Shown: positions 2,670-12,666 of the stretch, in pieces
Numbering within the stretch: the stretch's first letter is position 1
Layout: the number at the start of each line of letters is the position of its first letter
Assembly (NCBI GenBank): GCA_963696385.1
Contig: CAVOKF010000008.1
Span: 256,001-320,000, forward strand
Length of the DNA: 64,000 nucleotides
Source: an uncultured delta proteobacterium
GTDB taxonomy: Bacteria > Myxococcota_A > Polyangia > Polyangiales > Polyangiaceae
Direction of reading: 5' to 3'
Notes under the pieces: model-generated
Told to the model about the DNA's origin: nothing
The model's database searches: none
The model's input: the letters and a program-made list of their open reading frames with translations, nothing else
Translations under genes and position numbers: made by a program

Positions 2670-3599
2670 TCACGCGCGTACGCGCAGGGCATTTCGCACC
2701 AAATCGACTTCGACCGGAAGCCCCCCCAACGGCTCGCCGTCGACGTCGAGCAAGAACACGCTGCGCGCTCGGTCGTTGGCGAGATCGATGCGGATTCGAT
2801 CGCATCCGAAATGCTTTACGCCGGGCGCCGCCAGATGCCGACCGCGATAGATGAGCCGCGAAAAAGCGACGAACGCAAGCTTGCTCGGCGCGTCCATGCA
2901 GATCACTTCGAAGCGCCCATCATCGGGCTCGGCCATCGGCGCGACGTGCATTCCTCCGCCGAAGTACTGCCCGTTGCAGATGGCAATCATGTACGCGGCG
3001 ACCTGCCGATCCTGGGCCACGCCGGTGAGGCTCGACGCGCAGGCGAGCTCACCGCGCTCGCACTCCGCAAGCGCGCGGGTGCTGGCCCACGCGTACGCGA
3101 AGGACCCTCCCCAACGCTTGGTCGTGCGAGCGACGTGGCGATCGACCAAACCGCCGATTCCCGCGGACAAGATGTTGACAAACCAGCGGGTTCGCGATGT
3201 GCCGTCGGGCGCACGGAACGTGACCTTGCCGACGTCGATCGTCCGATCGCGCCCGCGCGCGATGGCGTCGACGTACCGATCGAGCCGGTGATCGATCCCG
3301 ATCGTCCGCCGGAAGTCACCTCCGGTCCCTTGCCCGACGTAGCCGACCGCCGTGTCGCCGGGACCCGCGAGCACCCCGTTGGCGACCTCGTGCAGCGTTC
3401 CGTCGCCCCCGACGGCGATGACGAGCTTTCGCCCCTCCCGGGCCGCCGCGAGCGACAGATCGATGGCGTGGCCGGGCCGCGCGGTGGCCAGCACGTCGAC
3501 GGGGCCCAGACGCCGCTCCAGGACCTGTTGGACCTGCGGAAACACACGACCGGCCCTGCCGCCGGCGGCGTGCGGATTGACGACGACGAGCGGACGCAC
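2670..3599 (-). CDS. Diacylglycerol/lipid kinase family protein (YegS/DgkB-like)
   Basis: VVNPHAAGG, AVGGDGTLHEVANG, GTGGDF, NGQYFGGG, DVDGEP. Confidence 0.9.
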   Translation of the reverse strand: MRPLVVVNPHAAGGRAGRVFPQVQQVLERRLGPVDVLATARPGHAIDLSLAAAREGRKLVIAVGGDGTLHEVANGVLAGPGDTAVGYVGQGTGGDFRRTIGIDHRLDRYVDAIARGRDRTIDVGKVTFRAPDGTSRTRWFVNILSAGIGGLVDRHVARTTKRWGGSFAYAWASTRALAECERGELACASSLTGVAQDRQVAAYMIAICNGQYFGGGMHVAPMAEPDDGRFEVICMDAPSKLAFVAFSRLIYRGRHLAAPGVKHFGCDRIRIDLANDRARSVFLLDVDGEPLGGLPVEVDLVRNALRVRA

Positions 3600-3610
3600 C
3601 GATCGGACCC

Positions 3611-4576
3611 TCAGTCGTCCCGCGGCCAGACGACGCCACGCACCCGCAGATCCTCGACCGTCTCGTAAAGCGTCACGTTGGGGTCACGAGCGGTCCAGCC
3701 GAGATCGACCCGCGCCTTGGTCGCATCGACGTACCAAAAGCATTGAGCCATATCGGCCGTCGCCTCGTCCACGGGAGAAGCCATCCCGAGGCGCGACGTC
3801 AGGCGATCGAGCCAAGACGCTCCCAGGCGAACGACTTCGCGAGACCGCGGAAGAGAAAGCCACGGCGCCGCGACACCCGAGACGCGAGCCAGCCGGTTCA
3901 GAAATTCCCGCATCGTCAGGTTGCAGCCGCCGATCAGGTACCGCTCGCCCGGCCGTCCGCGGTCCATCGCCAAGCGCAACGCCTGCGCTGCGTCGCGAAC
4001 GTCCACGAAGGACAGACCTCCCGCCGGAATCGCCCCGACCCGTCCCTCGAGAAATGTCCGAACGTCGCCCGTCGAGGAGCCGTTTACGTCTCCGGGGCCC
4101 AATAAGAGGCTCGGGTTGACGGAGACCACGTCGAACGCCTCGCGGCCGCGCGCCAATGCGAGCTGTTCGGCGAAGAGCTTCGCACGGTAGTAGGGCCAAC
4201 GCCCGATGAGACCGATCGGCGTCGCGGCGGTCTCGTCCAGAACGGGCACGGGCCTCTCGCTCACGGCCACCGTGCCGCTCGTGGACGCGATGACCACCCG
4301 CTTTACGCCCGCCGCCTGACATGCGTCGAGCACACTTCGAGTCCCCTCGACGTGGGTGCGGTAGAGCAACTCGGCGTCCGACGGCTTGCGCGACACCTTG
4401 CCGGCGCAGTGAAACGCACCGTCGCACTTGTGGGCGGCGCGTCGGACGCTCTCGGGATCCAGTACGTCGCCACCGCTCGATCGCGCGAAGCCGACGACCT
4501 CGTGACCCCGTGCTTTCAGATCCCGCACCAAGTGGGTTCCGAGAAATCCGGTCGAGCCGGTCACGAGATACTTCAC
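3611..4576 (-). CDS. NAD-dependent epimerase/dehydratase (extended SDR), positional equivalent of ElbE
   Basis: YLVTGSTGFLG Rossmann motif and YYRAK catalytic YxxxK; GTG start overlaps the upstream TGA (GTGA). Confidence 0.85.
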   Translation of the reverse strand: MKYLVTGSTGFLGTHLVRDLKARGHEVVGFARSSGGDVLDPESVRRAAHKCDGAFHCAGKVSRKPSDAELLYRTHVEGTRSVLDACQAAGVKRVVIASTSGTVAVSERPVPVLDETAATPIGLIGRWPYYRAKLFAEQLALARGREAFDVVSVNPSLLLGPGDVNGSSTGDVRTFLEGRVGAIPAGGLSFVDVRDAAQALRLAMDRGRPGERYLIGGCNLTMREFLNRLARVSGVAAPWLSLPRSREVVRLGASWLDRLTSRLGMASPVDEATADMAQCFWYVDATKARVDLGWTARDPNVTLYETVEDLRVRGVVWPRDD

Positions 4577-7500
4577 GACGCCTGATCGAGCTGGAACACC
4601 TTCTGGAACGTCATGAGCAGCGTCGGGTCGTTCGACTTGAAGGCACCGGAAAGAAAGTCGGCCGCGCTGGGCACGTACGCTTCGCGCACGATTTTGGCAA
4701 ACATCTCCGGGCTCGTCTTGAGCACGCAGTCGGCCTGACCGCCTTCGGGCTTTCCGGGGCGGACGTCGCACCCGTGCGAATCCACGCGCACGGTCCACTT
4801 GGCGAGGTCATCGCTGCCCAACGTGACATAGTAACTGACGGGCCGTTCGATCTCGCCGGCGCGGAACTTGGCGCCGAGCTCCGAGAAGAGTCGGACCAGC
4901 GGATGCACGCGTTCGTCCGGGACACCGCGCCCCGGCTGCGCGCGGGCGAGGTCGAGCACCCCGCCGTCGCGAAGCGCCGTGACGGCGGCCTGGGCCAGCC
5001 TGGCGACCTCGCGAGCCGCCTCCGCGGGCGTCATCCTCGTAGTGATCCGCCGCAGATCATCGATGCACAGCGGTGGACCGATGCGCGCGATCGAGATCGC
5101 GCCGCGTCGGAACGTGCGCGCCCTTGCGCATCGCGGCGTGAGTCCCCCCGAGGTGGATGGGAAGGATGTCGATTCCGTGAACGAGCGCCAGATGGCCGAC
5201 CATGGGCTTGAACGCCTGCATCTCGCCGGTCGGACTGCGGGTTCCCTCTGGGAAGATGAGGACCGTCTTGCCTTGCTCGATGACGTCGCTCGCCTGGCGG
5301 ATCGATTGGCGGAGCGACGCACGGCGGTCGATCGGCTTGAGATTGGTCAGGTTCTCGAAGAAAGCTCGGGTGATCCCGCTTTCGAAAAAGTAGTCCTGCG
5401 CCGCAAGCGAGACGATGCCGTCGCCGTACGTGCCGAGCGCGTGCCGCACGAGGCCCATGTCCAGATGGCTGGCGTGGTTGGCCACGACGATGACGCTGCG
5501 GTTGTGCGGGATGTGCGATTGACCAGAAACCCGAGGATTCATCAGGTCTCGATAGAAGACATCCTGCAGCTTGCCGACGAGGACCTTGCCGATCGCCCGA
5601 GCCGGCTCCGGAAGAACCATCGGGCTTTCGGTCGCGCGAGCGATCGGCGGACCGTCGCGATCCGCACCCCCGTCCTGTCGACTCGACAGTCGCTCGACGT
5701 CGGCCACTGTGACGCACGATTGAAGGTGTTGGGGGTCGACGGCACCGACGCGCGCCTCGAGGACCTCGAGTAGCTCGGTCAGCATCAGCGAATCGAAGCC
5801 GAGATCGCCCTGCAGAAGCGTCGCGCCCCGGATCCGATCGACCGGGACACCGCCGACGGTCGCGATGGCCGAGCGGACCGGGGTCGCTTCGCGGGATCGA
5901 TCTTCCGCGGGTGCGCTCGCGGTCATGATGCGCTGCAGGATGGCGCGGACCTCGTCGCGCTTGACCTTGCGCGTGGCCGTTCGCGGCAGTGGAGCTTCGT
6001 ACAAGTGCACGATCGCGGGGCGCTGCGACGCTGGCAGATCGTCGATCGCCTTTCGGAGGCTGCGACGCGCTCGTTCTCTCATCTGAGCACGCGGCATCGA
6101 TTCGTGATCCGAAGCAACGGCGAGGCACGCGAGCCTCTCCGCGCCTCGAGACGGCACGCCGACCACGGCGAGCTCCGCGACGTGACCCACGTCGCCGAGG
6201 CGGTGCTCGACGTCCTCCGGGTAGACGTTCTCGCCGGTCGGCGAGATGACGACGTTCTTGATGCGACCGACGATCTCGACGCAGCCGTTCGAGTCCATCC
6301 GGCCGAGATCGCCCGTGTGAAGCCAGCCGTCTCCGTCGATGGCGTCGCGTGTTGCGTCGGCATCGGTATAGCCGAGCATCACGTTCGGGCCCCGCGCGAC
6401 GACCTCGCCGATGCCACGGTCATCGGGTCGATCGATTCTCAGATCGACGCCGGGCACGGGCTTGCCCACGCCGGGGTCGAGTCGCAAACCAGGCCGCGCC
6501 ACGGCGAGGACCGGCGCAGCCTCGGTCAGCCCGTAGCCTTGGGTCAGACGCAGTCCCAAGCCACCGAAGAGCCGTTGGGTCTCGACGGGCAGAGCGGCAC
6601 CCCCGGAGATGAGCCAGCGGATGCTCCCTCCGAGCTCGGCATGAACCTCGCCGAACAGCACCCGGCCCGCATCGACCCCGAGGTTGGCCGCGAGCCAGCG
6701 GTTGACCTCGACCGCGGCATCGAATGCGGCACGCGCCATCGGGCCGCGAGCGTCCACGTCCGCCAGGATGCGTCGCTCGAGCAATTGCCAGAGCGCGGGG
6801 ACGCCGACCATCGCTTTGGCCTTGGACACGCGCAGAGCGCGCGTAATTTCCCCACCGCTCAGATCGGGCACGTACACGACGCGAGCTCCGCGCGACAGCG
6901 GCAGAAGCAGCCCGCACGTGAACTCGAACGTGTGATGCAAAGGCAACACGCTGACGACGGCGTCTCCTTCGCGAAGCGGAAACAACGGAGCCAATGCCGC
7001 AACGAGCGAAGTGAAATTGGCGTGAGTGAGCATGACGCCCTTGGGGCGTCCGGTCGTGCCGCTCGTAAACAAGATGCTGGCGACGTCGCCCGGCTCGGTG
7101 TCGATCAGCGGTGGATCGAGCCCATCGCTTGGTTCGACCGCAGCGTGAACGTCGAGCCATGCGAGATCCGGGCGATGAACGGCCAGATCGTGCTTCGCGG
7201 CGACGGTCTCGTCGCCCACGATCAGGCGCGCTCCGCTCTCCGCGAGCACGCCCGTCCAACCCGTCGCGTCGAGCGCGGGATCGACGGGAACCGCCGTGGC
7301 GCCGGCGCGCAGAATTCCAAAATAGGCGACCGCCCAGTCCGGATCGTTTTTTCCGCTCAGGGCCACGCGATCGCCGCGCCGCACGCCCCGATCTTCGAGC
7401 CGCGCAGCCATGGTGTCGGCGCCTCGCCGGATGTCGGCAAAGCTCACCCGCGTCAAGCCCTCGTCGGTCGACCGCTGCAGCGCAAGCGCGCCACCGTGCC

Positions 7501-9188
7501 GCTCCGCCATTTCCTCGAGAAGGGACACGAGCGTCGGGTGGGCGCCCATGGGTTTGAGCTCCCGCTTCAACTTGCGGTCCATCTGCGGGATGATCCGCCG
7601 CTCCATCGCCGGCATGTGGACGTTCATCATCCAGTCGGCCCAATCGATCGACTCCGGTGCCCACGGGAGCTTGCTCTTGTCTTCCTCGGACAGCCGCGCG
7701 CGCGCGGCCCGCGTGTTCGAGCAGTCGAAGGGGCCGATGAGCGTCGACGTGAACGGCTCGAAGAGCCGTTGAATGTCGGCGATCTTGGCATCTCGTCGTG
7801 CCAAGGCGTCGAGCGCTTCCGCCGCCGGCGCCAGGACGGGAACGGCGTCCTTCACGAAGGAAGCGACTCGGCGCGCGATTCGCGATCGCGCGGGCGCGCC
7901 GACTCGCTCGAACTGCGCGCGGTCGACGAAGGAAGGCTCGTAACGCGCCTGCAGCGCGTCGAACAGAAGGTTTTTCGTACCTTTGCCACGGTAATGGGCG
8001 CGCTTGTACAAGCCCACGAGCTCTCCGAAGCGCTGCACGGTGCACGGGTTCACGTCCGCCGCTCCAAACTGGTAGACCGGCTTGTGCGTGCCTTCCAAGA
8101 GCTCGACGAGCGCCAGAATCATCCCGGCGACGACGTAGTCGACCGGAATGAGGTCGAGCGGGACGTGCCGCCCGAGGATCTGCGTCTCGCCCTTCATGAT
8201 GAGGTAAATGAGCGGCGCGCTCGTGTTGATGCCTTCGTTGTAGGCCGGTACCGGGTAGGCCATGCTCGACTCACAGGCGGCCGGACGTGCGATCGTGAAC
8301 GGCAGGCCGCTCGCCGCGATCACCTGTTCGCCGATGGCCTTGGTGTACGTGTAAATATTGGGAAAACCCCAATGGCCGGCTCGAATCGAGCCCCGCTTCG
8401 GTGATTCGATCCCGGACAAACGATCGCTTCACTCGAGCCAGTTCCAAATCGTAGGGCCGACCCCGGGTAGGCTCTCCGCGGGCCAACAAATGGGCTCGGG
8501 CGCGCTCGTCGAACTCGTGCCGACGAAATGCGTCCTCGGATCGGTGCTTCGCTTGCGCGACCAAATCGAGGCACTCGGCAATCTCCCGGTCGGGGTCCCA
8601 GAGATCGGCGCCAATCGCCTCGGCGCGCGGGAACGGCACGGCGCGCGGGTCCTCTTCCAGGATGGGCCCCTTGCGCGACCCGGCCACGTAGGCCGTGCTC
8701 GTGTGCAAGATCGGTACGTCGCCGAGCGCTCGGGCGAGATCGACGAGATGGACCGCGCCGAAGGCATTCGCCGACAGGGCGTCGTCGAGGGCGGGGTTGA
8801 AGTCCACGACCCCAGCGACGTTGACGACGGCGTCCATCGTGCCACGCAGCTGCTTGACGCGCGCCTCGCCAAGGCCGCAGAGCGGCTCGCTCATCTCGCC
8901 ACCGATGGGCACCACCTTGTCGCGCAGAAAGTCCGCGTAGCGCGGACCGTGCGTGCGGCGCAGAGGCTCGAGGGCTTCGCTCGTGGCCACTTCGCTCGCG
9001 AAGCGGGCCTCGGGCGTGCTCAGATCGCCCTCCTTCGACCGTACGACCAGGTAAATCCGCTCCACGCCTGGATAGCGATCGAGCAGCATCGACCAAAAGA
9101 TCTTTCCCAAAAACCCGGTCCCGCCGACGACCAGGATTCGTGCGCCCCGCAGGGTGCGCGCGACGTCGAGCATGCCGCCACGCATCAT
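4573..9188 (-). CDS. elbD: ElbD-like multifunctional lipid enzyme (fatty acyl reductase + acyl-CoA synthetase + ACP + PlsC-type acyltransferase + SCP2-like domain); split here by two +1 frameshifts (~8384, ~5091)
   Basis: Joins ORFs 8271-9188, 5057-8419 and 4573-5322. Motifs: GGTGFLGK and YTYTK (FAR); FTSGTTGRPKG, YGLTE, HTGDLG (ANL); LGFDSL (ACP Ser); NHASHLD, FPEGTRS (acyltransferase); ADCVLKTSPEMF (SCP2-like). ~1537 aa if repaired. Confidence 0.8.
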
Positions 9189-9192
9189 CGCC

Positions 9193-10884
9193 TCAGACCG
9201 TCACGTCCGCCATGACGATCGGAGGCACATGAAGCATCGCCACGTCGGGGTGACGCCGCCCCTCCCCCGCCATCAGAATCGCCTCCGTCAGGTTTCGCGC
9301 GCGCTCCCAGCCGAGCAGCTTCGGAATGTACTCGTTGTCGGATCCAACGACGATGACGCGGCCCAGATGCTGGCGGCCGGCTTCACCCCAATACCACATG
9401 AAGAAGGGGTGGGCAGGGTGATAGGCATGTCCGCGCCGGTACATGGCAAGGTAAGCGGGGTTGGTCGCGAACTTTTCCTCGAACCTGTCGTGCATCACGG
9501 CCGCGTCGCGCGTAACGGGCAGAACGTCGTGCACGAACTCGACGTAGGCGGAGTGCTGATCGGCGTCGAACAGGTCGGTGCACGGGTGGAAGACGATCAT
9601 CGCGCCGCCCTTTCGGACGATCGGCGCCCCCCGGTACATGTTGAAGAGATAGCCCTGCGCCATCACCTGAACGAGCAGAGGGTTGAGGAATGCGTTGACG
9701 TTGTACGGACTGATGTACGGAATGCCGCATACGAGTATATCGGCCTGACCGCGCAGCGGTACGAGGTACTGCGCATAGGCCTTCTCGAGCGTTTTCGCGT
9801 GCACCGCCTCGCACTCTCCGGCGAACACGCCCGTCATGGAGAAGGGCGACGGAACGCGTTCGAAGATCGCCTGTCGCGCGGCGCGAGGAAGCTTCGCAAG
9901 GGTGTACGCGAGACCGCTGAAGGCAGCTCGCTCGGAGCCCGTCCAGTCGTCTTCGTTCTTGGACAGGAAGGAGAGCGGACGTTCGAACATCCGATTGTCG
10001 ACCGTGGTCTCGATGTGAAATACGTCGAGGGTCTTCTCGGCCACTCGGCCCATCCGGTCGACGCTCGTGGCGAGCGCGCTGGAGGCCGGGTCCATGTACG
10101 ACCAGCATTTTCGCATGACGTGCGGGTTGTGGTGAGCGCGCAAGCTGCGATACCCACAGAGACCCACGGCCACCGACTTGTGGCCTCCCGACATGGGTAC
10201 GAAATTCAGACTGACGTAGATGAGCAGATCGGCTTCCACCGCCTTGCGGTTGAGTTCCACGAGCTCGCCGTGATCGGTCGTCCCGACGACCTTCAGGCCT
10301 TTGGGATCCTCGGCATCGTGGCAATAGAGTCGATCCGGCCAATACGCATTGAAGATGCGATCGCCTGTCATGTGACGCACTTCGGCGGCCGTCATCCGTC
10401 GGTGAATCGAGGTCGCGATGACCATTTCGATGTCTTCGACGCCGTGGTCGGCCAGCATGCCGAGCACAATCGTGAGCACGCGCTGGCGCGTATCGGGCGT
10501 GCGCATCGGCGGCAGAGGCACCGACACGTCGTCGATGGCGATGACGACGCTCATTCCGGGCCGGAGTTTCGCGTGCAGCGGATCGCTGCCGAGCGGATGG
10601 TTGAGCGCGTAGCGGATGGCAGCGTCGGGATCTTTGAGCGACTCGAGTGGCGGTCGCGGATAGATCACCCGCGTGCCCTCCGGCAGATCCACGCTAACGA
10701 GCTGGTCCCCGCTGAAGACGGCCCGCGGCGCGCTTTTGCGGTCGATGGTCACGACCAGCGGATGCGTGTTGCGCACGCCCGGACGGGGAGCGACGTCGGA
10801 GGACCTTGCGATCGGAGCCGCGACGCCGGAGTCGTTCGGTTCGGCGGCATCGGCGTCGGGCAGCTGCAACGGCAGCGTCGTCAT
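9193..10884 (-). CDS. Lactate racemase (LarA/DUF2088)-domain protein in the elb-like operon
   Basis: IRYALNHPLGSDPL, IAIDD, IATSIHRRM, HDAEDP, SGGHK; ATG overlaps the HAD gene stop (ATGA). Confidence 0.75.
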   Translation of the reverse strand: MTTLPLQLPDADAAEPNDSGVAAPIARSSDVAPRPGVRNTHPLVVTIDRKSAPRAVFSGDQLVSVDLPEGTRVIYPRPPLESLKDPDAAIRYALNHPLGSDPLHAKLRPGMSVVIAIDDVSVPLPPMRTPDTRQRVLTIVLGMLADHGVEDIEMVIATSIHRRMTAAEVRHMTGDRIFNAYWPDRLYCHDAEDPKGLKVVGTTDHGELVELNRKAVEADLLIYVSLNFVPMSGGHKSVAVGLCGYRSLRAHHNPHVMRKCWSYMDPASSALATSVDRMGRVAEKTLDVFHIETTVDNRMFERPLSFLSKNEDDWTGSERAAFSGLAYTLAKLPRAARQAIFERVPSPFSMTGVFAGECEAVHAKTLEKAYAQYLVPLRGQADILVCGIPYISPYNVNAFLNPLLVQVMAQGYLFNMYRGAPIVRKGGAMIVFHPCTDLFDADQHSAYVEFVHDVLPVTRDAAVMHDRFEEKFATNPAYLAMYRRGHAYHPAHPFFMWYWGEAGRQHLGRVIVVGSDNEYIPKLLGWERARNLTEAILMAGEGRRHPDVAMLHVPPIVMADVTV

Positions 10885-11582
10885 GGAATGCGCTCCAGGA
10901 TCTGGGCGACCGCGGAAGGACGCGCGCCGAGGTGCAAGACCGGCCAAGAGTAGGTGCGGGCGAGCTTCATGAGACGCAGATCCGGATTGACGGCGCACGG
11001 GTGACCCACGATCGAGAGCATCGGCACATCGGAATAACTATCCGAATACGCGAAGCAGTCGTCCAGATCTTGCTTTTCGTGGCGCGCCCATTCGCGAACC
11101 AATCGCGCCTTCTCGGGACCCGCCACGATCGGGCGCAGCAGTCGTCCCGTCGCATAGCCGTCCTGAAACTCGAGCCGGTTGCTGATAACGGCCGTCGCGC
11201 CGAGGTGCGCCGCCAAGCGATCCATCAAAAAATCGAGCGCACCGGAAATCAGGACGACCTCGTGGCCCTCGGCCCGGCAGCGATCGACGAGTTGACGCGC
11301 GCCAGGAAATACGGCGCCCCGCAGTACGCGGTCGAAGGCCTCGTCGGCCAGCAGAAGGAGCCGATCCTGCGATATTCCCTCGTAGGCGGCGAAGAGCAGC
11401 TCGTTGAATCGGCGGCGATCGACCCATTCCGCCAACGCCATGCGCGGCCCCCGGGCAGCGGCGCGGGCCAGCGCACCGAAGCTGCGGAGCGGGTTGGGGG
11501 TATGGGTCAGGTAAAATAAGGTCGGGTGAAGCAGATTGGTTCGGACCAGCGTGCCGTCGACGTCGAAAAAGCTGGCGGGCAC
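10881..11582 (-). CDS. HAD-IB family hydrolase (SerB-like), positional equivalent of ElbB
   Basis: FFDVDGTL, LISGA, AYSDSYSDVPML, AVNPD. Confidence 0.9.
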   Translation of the reverse strand: MPASFFDVDGTLVRTNLLHPTLFYLTHTPNPLRSFGALARAAARGPRMALAEWVDRRRFNELLFAAYEGISQDRLLLLADEAFDRVLRGAVFPGARQLVDRCRAEGHEVVLISGALDFLMDRLAAHLGATAVISNRLEFQDGYATGRLLRPIVAGPEKARLVREWARHEKQDLDDCFAYSDSYSDVPMLSIVGHPCAVNPDLRLMKLARTYSWPVLHLGARPSAVAQILERIP

Positions 11583-11739: not shown

Positions 11740-12666
11740 GTGGAACGCGTCACCCTGCCGATCGCCGAGATCCAGAGCCCCCGTACGCACGATCGCCGCC
11801 CGGACGACGATGCTCCGCTCGAAGCGAGTGAAGGCGGGCTCAGTCGCCTCGAACGAATGCAAATTCGCCTGGTCCGAGCCACATTGGAGCCCGGTCCGCT
11901 CGATTCGGCGATCCGTCTTTGCCAGCGCACGGTCGGCCAAGGATGGATCCGCGCCGTGTCGATGCGTCTTCGACGCGTCGCCGGCTTGAATCGCCTTCCG
12001 CCGTGGAATCCGTCGCAAAGCGTCATCCTGGTTGCCAACCATCGGTCGTTTTTCGATCTGTACGTGACGACCGCCGAGCTCGTGGCGCACGGGCTGCCGC
12101 AGCGCATTTTATTCCCGGTACGTTCGAATTTTTTCTACGACCACCCTCTCGGACCGCTGGTCAACGGGACGATGAGCTTCTTCGCGATGTACCCGCCGAT
12201 CTTTCGAGACCGCAAGCGGGCCGCGCTCAATCTGGCGAGCCTCGACGAGCTCTCGCTGCTGCTGCGCCGGGGCGGCTTTTTCGTCGGCTTTCACCCCGAG
12301 GGAACGCGCAACAAGAGCGCCGATCCGTACAGGCTTCTGCCGGCGCAAAGCGGTGTCGGCCGCGTCATTCACAAGGCCCGCGTGCCGGTCGTTCCCGTCT
12401 TCGTGAATGGACTGGGTAACGACCTGGTGCGCCAGCTTCGTGCGGGGGTCACCGGACGAGGCGATCCGATCTGGCTCGTGTTCGGGGCGCCCATCGATTT
12501 CGGCGACCTGCTGGACGCGCCAGCCGGGCCGGGAGCGTATCGGCGGATCGCCGAGCACTGCGTCAAGGCGATCGGAATGCTCGGCCAAGAGGAGAAGGAT
12601 CTTCGAGCGTCCTCGTCACTCGTTGACGCCGGCCTCGGTTCGCGTCACGAGATGGGCCAGCAGTGA
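11740..12666 (+). CDS. PlsC-family lysophospholipid acyltransferase
   Basis: VANHRSFFD (HX4D), FHPEGTRN, VPVVPV. Confidence 0.88.
   Translation: MERVTLPIAEIQSPRTHDRRPDDDAPLEASEGGLSRLERMQIRLVRATLEPGPLDSAIRLCQRTVGQGWIRAVSMRLRRVAGLNRLPPWNPSQSVILVANHRSFFDLYVTTAELVAHGLPQRILFPVRSNFFYDHPLGPLVNGTMSFFAMYPPIFRDRKRAALNLASLDELSLLLRRGGFFVGFHPEGTRNKSADPYRLLPAQSGVGRVIHKARVPVVPVFVNGLGNDLVRQLRAGVTGRGDPIWLVFGAPIDFGDLLDAPAGPGAYRRIAEHCVKAIGMLGQEEKDLRASSSLVDAGLGSRHEMGQQ

Follow-up and report, generated by a model that had tools for sequence, protein, structure and literature searches.

In Myxococcus xanthus, alkyl-ether lipids are attributed to the elbABCDE operon (MXAN_1531-1527; PMC9131029, PMC13012113). The ElbD protein of this organism was demonstrated to activate a fatty acid and to load its own ACP, and the steps by which that fatty acid becomes an alkyl ether are described as unknown (PMC9131029). 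The elb genes serve to guess ether-lipid producers in soils, sediments and sponges, and diacylglycerol (DAG) kinases together with glycerol-3-phosphate acyltransferases have been recorded beside elbD/elbB in two clades (Poribacteria/Acidobacteriota, sponge; bioRxiv 10.64898/2026.06.23.733905). As to the LarA superfamily, the gene contexts of its LarAH groups 14/15 include HAD, SDR, ACS, FAR and PlsC (PMC7583248), and a Frankia LarAH14 protein was inactive in seven hydroxyacid assays.

The window analysed here is a stretch of 64,000 nt from an uncultured delta proteobacterium (Polyangiaceae; GCA_963696385.1, contig CAVOKF010000008.1, positions 256,001-320,000, forward strand). On its minus strand, at nt 2670..11582, it carries five co-oriented genes in the order elbB-elbC-elbD-elbE-kinase, accompanied by a divergent PlsC gene (Table 1). 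The tight coupling described by an earlier sequence-only reading was confirmed at all four junctions, namely an ATGA overlap for elbB/elbC (10881-10884), a 4-nt gap for elbC/elbD (9189-9192), a GTGA overlap for elbD/elbE (4573-4576) and an 11-nt gap for elbE/kinase (3600-3610). The order HAD, elbC, ElbD megaenzyme, SDR is that of elbB-elbC-elbD-elbE, and gene order and domains match these genes as reviewed in PMC9131029, in agreement with the elb assignment already proposed; as judged from the sequence, the locus is very probably an elbBCDE alkyl-ether lipid operon. No elbA was present upstream of elbB, where the divergent PlsC gene stands instead, and since elbA is reported to be dispensable (PMC9131029) its lack was not counted as defining. 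A promoter scan of the locus gave 0 sites against 0.9 expected; no terminator-like site was found between elbE and the kinase gene, the overall count (11 against 6.6 expected) being uninformative. RNA run X17 yielded contigs of a ~94%-alike relative, some spanning gene junctions; as these may stem from DNA, they were given no weight as signs of transcription.

Table 1. Features of the elb locus and its divergent neighbour (positions in the window)
Feature	Position (nt)	Strand	Support
YegS/Rv2252/BmrU-family soluble lipid kinase, 309 aa	2670..3599	-	TIGR00147 141 bits, cut-off 118.65
elbE, extended short-chain dehydrogenase/reductase, 321 aa	3611..4576	-	PF01370 121 bits
elbD, FAR-Sterile-ACS-ACP-acyltransferase-SCP2-like megaenzyme, ~1537 aa	4573..9188	-	Pfam domains; catalytic motifs of every domain
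SCP2-like lipid-binding domain, ElbD C-terminus	4576..4905	-	PF02036, Pfam 22.6 bits vs cut-off 21.3
elbC, LarA-superfamily protein, LarAH14/15/16 family	9193..10884	-	NF052592 789.6 bits, cut-off 740
elbB, HAD-IB phosphatase, 233 aa	10881..11582	-	TIGR01490 145.6 bits, cut-off 98.3
divergent PlsC-type acyltransferase, 308 aa	11740..12666	+	PF01553 63.4 bits

In the window elbD is read as three overlapping frames (9188-8271, 8419-5057 and 5322-4573), split by one-base insertions near 8384 and at 5091/5093. These extra bases are missing from the contigs of 3 runs belonging to 3 studies (the contigs of a fourth run did not reach the insertion sites), the base at 5091 is also missing in a relative with 94% DNA identity, and in relatives elbD is a single open frame with the same C-terminus. 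Because the contigs of three runs lack both extra bases and the relative lacks the one at 5091, the frame breaks are assembly errors; a pseudogene or a programmed frameshift was thus ruled out. Once the two insertions are discounted, FAR, ACS, ACP and acyltransferase lie in one ElbD chain. The five genes and the ElbD-like domains had been correctly called from the sequence, the two insertions and the C-terminal SCP2-like domain having been missed. Among 10 ElbD copies scanned, PF02036 scored above cut-off in 3, more weakly in 2 and gave no match in 5; by tblastn, 51 of 60 loci from outside the family showed the SCP2-like tail, which was not detected in the 7 loci of families f7-f9, in L173, in the L175 region or in the cut locus L168. 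A search for M. xanthus ElbD (Q1DC43) gave no Myxococcus-named protein among the 120 entries listed.

ElbB keeps the DxD, SGA, K and SDxxxD motifs, and a HAD phosphatase gene was found in nearly all elb loci. ElbE carries TGxTGFxG and YxxxK, its nearest solved relative being 3wj7 (Gox2253, with an aldehyde-reductase role), followed by cinnamoyl-CoA reductases. The PlsC gene, overlapping thyA by GTGA, lies divergent ahead of elbB in 16 of the 34 relatives' loci holding elbB, while 12 of them lack it and 6 are ambiguous; thyA, dhfr and leuA adjoin the locus in the closest relatives only.

The LarA-like gene passes the NF052592 cut-off and hence falls in the family holding MXAN_1529, which is listed in LarAH group 15 (PMC7583248), corresponds to elbC according to the locus tags of PMC13012113 and shows, judged by eye, the same motifs as the window's protein. 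Since its family includes MXAN_1529, the gene is elbC and not an addition to the cluster, so that a novel insertion was ruled out. The ElbC model (pLDDT 94.6) has its best fold match in 9q3k (TM 0.79/0.86), and alignment to 9q3j/9q2u assigns the thioamide lysine to K236, the nickel histidine to H251/H252, the first catalytic histidine to H161 and the ribose aspartate to D119. Residues D119, H161, K236, H251 and H252 are kept in 92 of 92 aligned sequences and D118 in 91, while the second catalytic histidine is lost, position 227 being N in 77 (as in the window's copy) and T in 15. A role as a LarA-proper 2-hydroxyacid racemase was therefore rejected, the equivalent of H174 being lost and group 15 being recorded as lacking R75 and K298 (PMC7583248). 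By these predicted features, ElbC is a single-histidine nickel-pincer protein of LarAH group 15, with cofactor binding predicted, and a candidate for the ether-forming step. As for cofactor synthesis, larC is present in 97 of 98 elbC genomes and larB, larC and larE all score above cut-off in this genome, where, because a second, canonical-looking LarA homologue is encoded as well, their presence cannot be ascribed solely to ElbC. A literature search retrieved no link between the nickel-pincer cofactor and ether lipids, no paper joining elbC and lactate racemase and none naming MXAN_1529, and a plasmid search with ElbC gave no match.

The gene following elbE is intact and codes for a protein with DAGK_cat and YegS_C domains, in which the NPxA, GGDG, DVG, DDG and DGE motifs are all present. 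It scores under the cut-offs of every named equivalog (PRK13337, 101 of 385; PRK13054, 97 of 284), and its best solved relative is DgkB (2qv7, E 4e-18).

Among the relatives, 24 of 80 loci have the kinase gene directly behind elbE, as do 15 of the 30 kinase loci viewed in addition, which brings the total to 39 of 80 genomes; this arrangement occurs at ElbD identities ranging between 95% and 50%. A cultured bacterium with the order elbD-elbE-kinase is Labilithrix luteola DSM 27648 (locus L050). The elbE-kinase pair is intact at 10 loci where elbE stands off elbD (elbD-elbE distance 270-7956 nt), and one genome (L052/L199) keeps the pair ~0.5 Mb from elbD. In at least 29 of the 80 family loci, elbE is present but not directly followed by the kinase gene (8 with the kinase elsewhere in the locus, 21 with none in the locus). 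Outside the family, neither tblastn nor HMM detected a kinase at any of 60 elbD loci; elbE is present in 56 of these, and 53 of those 56 extend at least 1.2 kb past it. Of 80 more distant elbC loci, 10 have a family kinase at the cluster, 9 of these kinases falling outside the clade of the window's own, whereas the density seen in this genome would lead one to expect 0.49; examples are the orders kinase-elbD-HAD-ZnADH-elbC (L243) and elbD-HAD-ZnADH-elbC-kinase (L240), and these kinases are 25-47% identical, one close pair excepted. The link of the kinase to elb loci thus exceeds chance. Quick trees, built on relatives that are not independent, gave three forced label changes, which may equal one gain plus two losses.

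A kinase homologue at E 1e-20 is missing from 11 of 95 elbD genomes, and 153 of the 206 genomes that lack elbD have one; genome G002 holds a kinase of the window's clade and neither elbD, elbC nor larC. The loci outside the family and the elbD genomes without a homologue exclude the view that every elb operon has the kinase as its sixth gene. The proposal that it extends the described cluster survives as regards linkage beyond chance and fails as regards novelty, DAG kinases near elb-like clusters being already on record (bioRxiv 10.64898/2026.06.23.733905). Co-conservation, on which that proposal had been made to depend, was observed in much of the family and was missing from the loci outside it.

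According to our main reading, to which we assign a probability of about 50%, the kinase acts mainly on an elb-derived alkylglycerol-type substrate, re-phosphorylating it for PlsC. That it repeatedly lies next to elbE or elbC hints at a product that leaves the cluster unphosphorylated, and neutral 1-O-alkylglycerols have been found in M. xanthus (PMC9131029). On the other side, a general lipid-recycling job is indicated by most genomes holding no close family member other than the linked kinase (a single match in 42 of 45) and by the other myxobacterial kinase type being often beside lgt (5 of 10) or lnt (4 of 8 loci fetched). The enzyme might then be the lineage's ordinary DgkB-like, single-copy DAG-recycling kinase with no ether preference, settled behind elbE once in the ancestor of some Polyangiaceae and retained at that place through inheritance or common lipid regulation. 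The kinship with DgkB, the homologues in elbD-less genomes and the retention of unlinked copies next to unrelated neighbours, among them HlyD, FtsH, panE and lpxC, agree with such an origin, which fails to explain why the kinase travels with elbE and not with elbD and why distant kinases occur at elbC in other lineages; we regard it as the main, though less probable, alternative.

The patchy linkage would also fit an accessory role in salvage or remobilisation, the kinase standing off the de novo route and re-phosphorylating alkylglycerols that derive from prey or from neutral ether lipids in store, while ElbB would oppose it at another growth stage. Indeed, M. xanthus lipid bodies accumulate neutral ether lipids under starvation (PMC9131029) and the kinase of ACAD10 serves salvage in animals (PMC13596139). 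However, the 11-nt gap suggests expression of the kinase alongside the synthesis genes and the phosphatase, making opposed timing hard, and we consider this role improbable. It comes nearest to the cycling between alkylglycerol and its phosphate that the sequence-only reading had offered as the special feature of this variant, an idea that did not hold, since the phosphatase is near-universal in elb loci and the kinase is patchy and occurs also without elb; the data agree better with recycling or with a hand-over in one direction.

Ceramide and sphingosine kinases share the YegS-type fold, and sphingolipids are made by some myxobacteria. Another lipid alcohol (a fatty alcohol, a sphingoid base or ceramide) might thus be the substrate, for instance with a fatty-alcohol phosphate formed from the ElbE product, as the position of the kinase gene after a reductase gene and a weak similarity to sphingosine kinase 1 (E 2e-4) would allow. 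Yet an alkyl-phosphate donor would be required in every elb genome, 11 of 95 of which lack a homologue, and sphingolipid genes were not seen among recurrent neighbours, making this substrate very improbable.

Returning to an alkylglycerol-type substrate, the following route may be proposed. ElbD would activate a fatty acid and load its own ACP; from its domains, the FAR part would give a fatty aldehyde or alcohol and the acyltransferase would acylate a C3 phosphate, either glycerol 3-phosphate or DHAP. The phosphate would be removed by ElbB, and ElbC, with a nickel-pincer nucleotide that LarB/C/E supply from genes outside the locus, might exchange acyl for alkyl through a transient hydride transfer or a covalent adduct. 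ElbE would reduce the remaining carbonyl to give 1-O-alkylglycerol, which the kinase would phosphorylate again, as such or as the 2-acyl derivative, allowing PlsC to acylate sn-2 and yield membrane ether phospholipids; where no kinase is linked, this step would fall to a family member encoded at another place in the genome. The case for an obligatory dephosphorylation is weakened by the M. xanthus elbB insertion, whose partial effect was put down to polarity (PMC9131029). An AGPS query on the genome found none, two FAD-oxidase_C matches fitting D-2-hydroxyacid dehydrogenases far better, and CarF/PEDS1 gave no match in this genome and 5 others, a search in which the positive controls gave no match either.

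Taken jointly, the two clues would describe an AGPS-free, nickel-pincer ether formation, with ElbB unmasking the glycerol, the ElbC cofactor acting as a transient hydride or carbanion acceptor in the acyl-to-alkyl exchange, ElbE, whose place a zinc alcohol dehydrogenase would take in other lineages, reducing the product to free 1-O-alkylglycerol, and a bacterial alkylglycerol kinase recruited more than once; we think it rather unlikely that the whole combination holds. If ElbC is a nickel-pincer enzyme, ether-lipid synthesis should need nickel and larBCE, and if both the ElbC and the kinase readings are true, a new reaction for the nickel-pincer cofactor and an alkylglycerol kinase of non-ACAD10 fold would follow. 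If the kinase merely recycles DAG, the locus is an ordinary family-level variant. The two gene-level clues, ElbC and kinase placement, open the missing ether chemistry to small experiments. Literature searches returned, by title or abstract, no paper on elb kinases among those on bacterial alkylglycerol kinases and ether lipids, and nothing relevant among the papers listed for Sorangium.

Compared with the known systems, the locus shares with M. xanthus elb the HAD, elbC, the FAR-ACS-ACP-acyltransferase megaenzyme and the SDR in the order elbB-C-D-E, and differs in having no elbA-like SDR before elbB, a kinase after elbE and a divergent PlsC. The sponge elb-like clusters belong to other phyla, and the kinase, whose family is unnamed in the available text, is read there as a phosphatidic acid producer; the same text leaves elbC unmentioned. 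Like LarAH groups 14/15, the window's ElbC keeps the equivalents of D72, H108, K184 and H200 and loses that of H174 (PMC7583248), a source whose main text does not mention 'lipid' and does not tie these groups to ether lipids. The single-histidine LarA_Sp and LarA_Bw (PMC12611868; PDB 9q3k, 9q3j) likewise lack the H174 equivalent, 9q3k being the closest fold, but they differ from ElbC in their sugar-gene surroundings and at ~20% identity, and are not tied there to ether lipids. The kinase belongs to the same two-domain family, with the same catalytic motifs, as Staphylococcus-type DgkB (2qv7) and E. coli YegS (2jgr), but falls under both NCBIfam cut-offs. Finally, in animals, ACAD10 likewise pairs a 1-O-alkylglycerol kinase and a phosphatase in ether-lipid metabolism (PMC13596139), a likeness by analogy only, as its kinase has an aminoglycoside-phosphotransferase fold unrelated to the DAGK_cat/YegS_C protein of the window.

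The five co-oriented genes and the divergent PlsC-type gene described in the sequence-only reading were all found in the window, and the four gene junctions have the overlaps and gaps given there. Catalytic motifs are intact in every ElbD domain and in the other four operon proteins. In M. xanthus, elbA-E correspond to MXAN_1531-1527 (PMC13012113). According to PMC9131029, elbB codes for a HAD protein, elbC for a protein of no known function, elbD for a FAR-ACS-ACP-acyltransferase and elbE for an NAD-dependent epimerase/dehydratase; only the ACS and ACP activities of ElbD are experimentally established, in M. xanthus. Compared by the published description of the genes, the elbB-C-D-E core is common to both loci, and we take the core genes of the window to be the elb operon (probability about 0.9).

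Coordinates of the elb-like operon and of the divergent acyltransferase gene in the window
Feature	Position (nt)	Strand	Remark
HAD-IB phosphatase (elbB)	11582-10881	minus	
Lar_N protein (elbC)	10884-9193	minus	
Megaenzyme (elbD)	9188-4573	minus	
Extended SDR (elbE)	4576-3611	minus	
DAGK_cat/YegS_C kinase	3599-2670	minus	
PlsC-type gene	11740-12666	plus	start 157 nt from elbB

The source genome (6.9 Mb, 8 contigs, 96% complete) has its nearest relatives in the Polyangiaceae. Among 301 genomes of the phylum as defined by the search tool, which may not include Myxococcales, elbD was detected at E 1e-100 in 95, all of them also carrying elbC, and elbC was present without elbD in 3 more. Plus-strand thyA and dhfr follow plsC, with lipA converging (window:12663-15127), an arrangement retained in the closest relatives only.

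As assembled, elbD occupies three frames. One base fewer is found at 5091 in a relative with 94% DNA identity. Contigs of sequencing runs X1 and X17, from other studies, and X4, which may be the source sample, are one base shorter at each of two places, 8384 and either 5091 or 5093; contigs of run X8 lack coverage of these positions. Because the extra bases are absent from the relative and from these three runs, the breaks are assembly errors, and without the insertions elbD would be 1537 codons long. Its last piece is an SCP2-like domain, in frame in relatives and found in most elbD loci outside the family. ElbD proteins of three families of the same class (L126-L132) are without this tail, and the Pfam list of a 1936-aa ElbD relative (P0410) suggests an additional fused SDR, perhaps ElbD-ElbE.

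The ElbC of the window scores over the LarAH14/15/16 cut-off. Desguin et al. 2020 (PMC7583248) assign MXAN_1529 to group 15 and name HAD, SDR, ACS, FAR and PlsC in the gene context of groups 14-16; lipids do not come up in their main text. Across 92 aligned ElbC sequences (93 extracted, 2 discarded for stops, that of the window added), the residues corresponding to D72, H108, K184 and H200 never vary, and Asn or Thr takes the place of H174. The best match of the structure model (pLDDT 94.6) is the single-histidine LarA_Sp structure, in which the cofactor is bound along with a covalently attached ligand that has not been identified (PMC12611868). The genome of the window encodes larB, larC and larE, as well as a second LarA homologue. 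Presence of larC in 97/98 elbC genomes versus 109/203 others is a contrast inflated by kinship; larC accompanies ElbC in 41/41 genomes where this is the sole Lar_N match, and since it also occurs in 40/40 genomes whose only Lar_N matches are proteins other than ElbC and in 69/163 lacking any such match, it is common in any case. In one metagenomic locus (L292:2014-11192) larB-larC-larE lie immediately before a FAR-HAD, elbC, acyltransferase cluster. Overall, ElbC probably binds the nickel-pincer cofactor. A search with FAD-oxidase_C found no AGPS in the genome of the window. ElbC may, at less than even odds, form the ether bond. Against a universal role of ElbC count both the cluster families with elbD and elbB only, described in a sponge preprint (10.64898/2026.06.23.733905), and some distant ElbC-like proteins (P0007, P0008) without the cofactor lysine and the nickel histidine, a loss resembling group 16 as outlined in PMC7583248.

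The kinase scores over the YegS/Rv2252/BmrU subfamily cut-off and below every equivalog cut-off. Among 80 Polyangiaceae loci it lies at most 200 nt behind elbE in 24, elsewhere in the locus in 8 and is absent in 21 having at least 1.2 kb of flank, the other 27 being cut or without elbE. Direct linkage was lacking in 56 genomes, 45 of which were searched further (9 with the kinase already in the locus and 2 with very short loci were omitted); all 45 gave a match, single in 42, and in 15 of the best 30 loci elbE immediately precedes it, bringing adjacency to at least 39/80 genomes (24 + 15). The pair stays intact where elbE is separated from elbD, by 270-7956 nt in 10 loci and by about 0.5 Mb in one genome, and therefore the partner of the kinase is elbE, not elbD. 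Co-conservation with elb, on which the sequence-only reading made its proposal depend, is seen within much of the family, but not at the 60 elbD loci outside it, where tblastn and HMM searches found no kinase (0/60). A quickly built tree of 79 kinases places the linked kinases in a single Polyangiaceae clade, interspersed with unlinked members (six label changes by parsimony).

Kinase homologues are general, being common also without elbD (84/95 genomes with elbD versus 153/206 without), and the genome of the window has three additional, more distant DAGK_cat proteins, besides one phosphofructokinase false match. With such a distribution on one side and the pairing with elbE on the other, we give even odds to a kinase working mainly on an elb product; a plain DAG recycler is a weaker candidate, a salvage enzyme improbable and action on another lipid alcohol more improbable still. 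A second DAGK_cat gene of the same genome (L113, G000:C3:404218-407508) has a PlsC-type acyltransferase on one side and an acyl-CoA ligase on the other. Kinases of the other myxobacterial YegS type (L216-L232) often adjoin lipoprotein lipidation genes, lgt in 5/10 and lnt in 4/8 fetched loci, according to a scan of 70 selected neighbours. The kinase is followed after 70 nt by an isopropylmalate-synthase-like gene (383 aa; window:1448-2599, minus strand) that lacks the C-terminal regulatory domain and is a candidate link to branched-chain precursor supply; it adjoins the kinase only in L001, L009, L010 and L186, and longer paralogues sit on contig C7.

A metagenome scan with distant ElbC sequences returned 80 of 511 confirmed loci, 10 of which have a YegS-family kinase at the cluster, 9 outside the kinase clade of the window; 0.49 kinases would be expected in these 853 kb at the density of the window's genome, the loci not being independent and including two near copies. 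Four of the nine carry full elbD, one is a variant cluster and four have elbC alone beside the kinase. Except for the near-copy pair, the distant cluster kinases are 25-47% identical. A quick tree of 30 kinases (23 hand-picked from earlier sets and 7 of the 10 new, 3 short ones omitted) needs four label changes, three of them forced; on its own, this is no proof that the kinase was placed there independently more than once. Several distant clusters have a zinc alcohol dehydrogenase at the expected place of elbE. In the low-GC cluster L239 (5196-8303), an acyl-CoA synthetase fused to an HMG-CoA-reductase-family domain, possibly a different fatty-acyl reductase, stands at the expected place of FAR, with PlsC, GpsA, zinc alcohol dehydrogenase, kinase, HAD, ElbC and GPAT as neighbours.

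From domains and gene order, the likeliest route would begin with ElbD as the source of both the acylated C3 backbone and the reduced fatty chain; ElbB would take off the phosphate, ElbC would make the ether by a hypothetical chemistry, ElbE would reduce the product, the kinase would put phosphate back and PlsC would attach the sn-2 acyl chain. The scheme is unlikely to be right as a whole. The interest of the locus rests on two testable predictions on the elb pathway.

The kinase, proposed from the sequence as an addition to the known cluster, is genuine and recurrent: confined to the family in the elbD survey, it recurs in distant elbC loci. Part of this is already in print, since the sponge preprint (10.64898/2026.06.23.733905) reports elb-like clusters that have DAG kinases and glycerol-3-phosphate acyltransferases next to them. 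The locus is a variant of the elb system, with a core already known and a kinase addition partly published.
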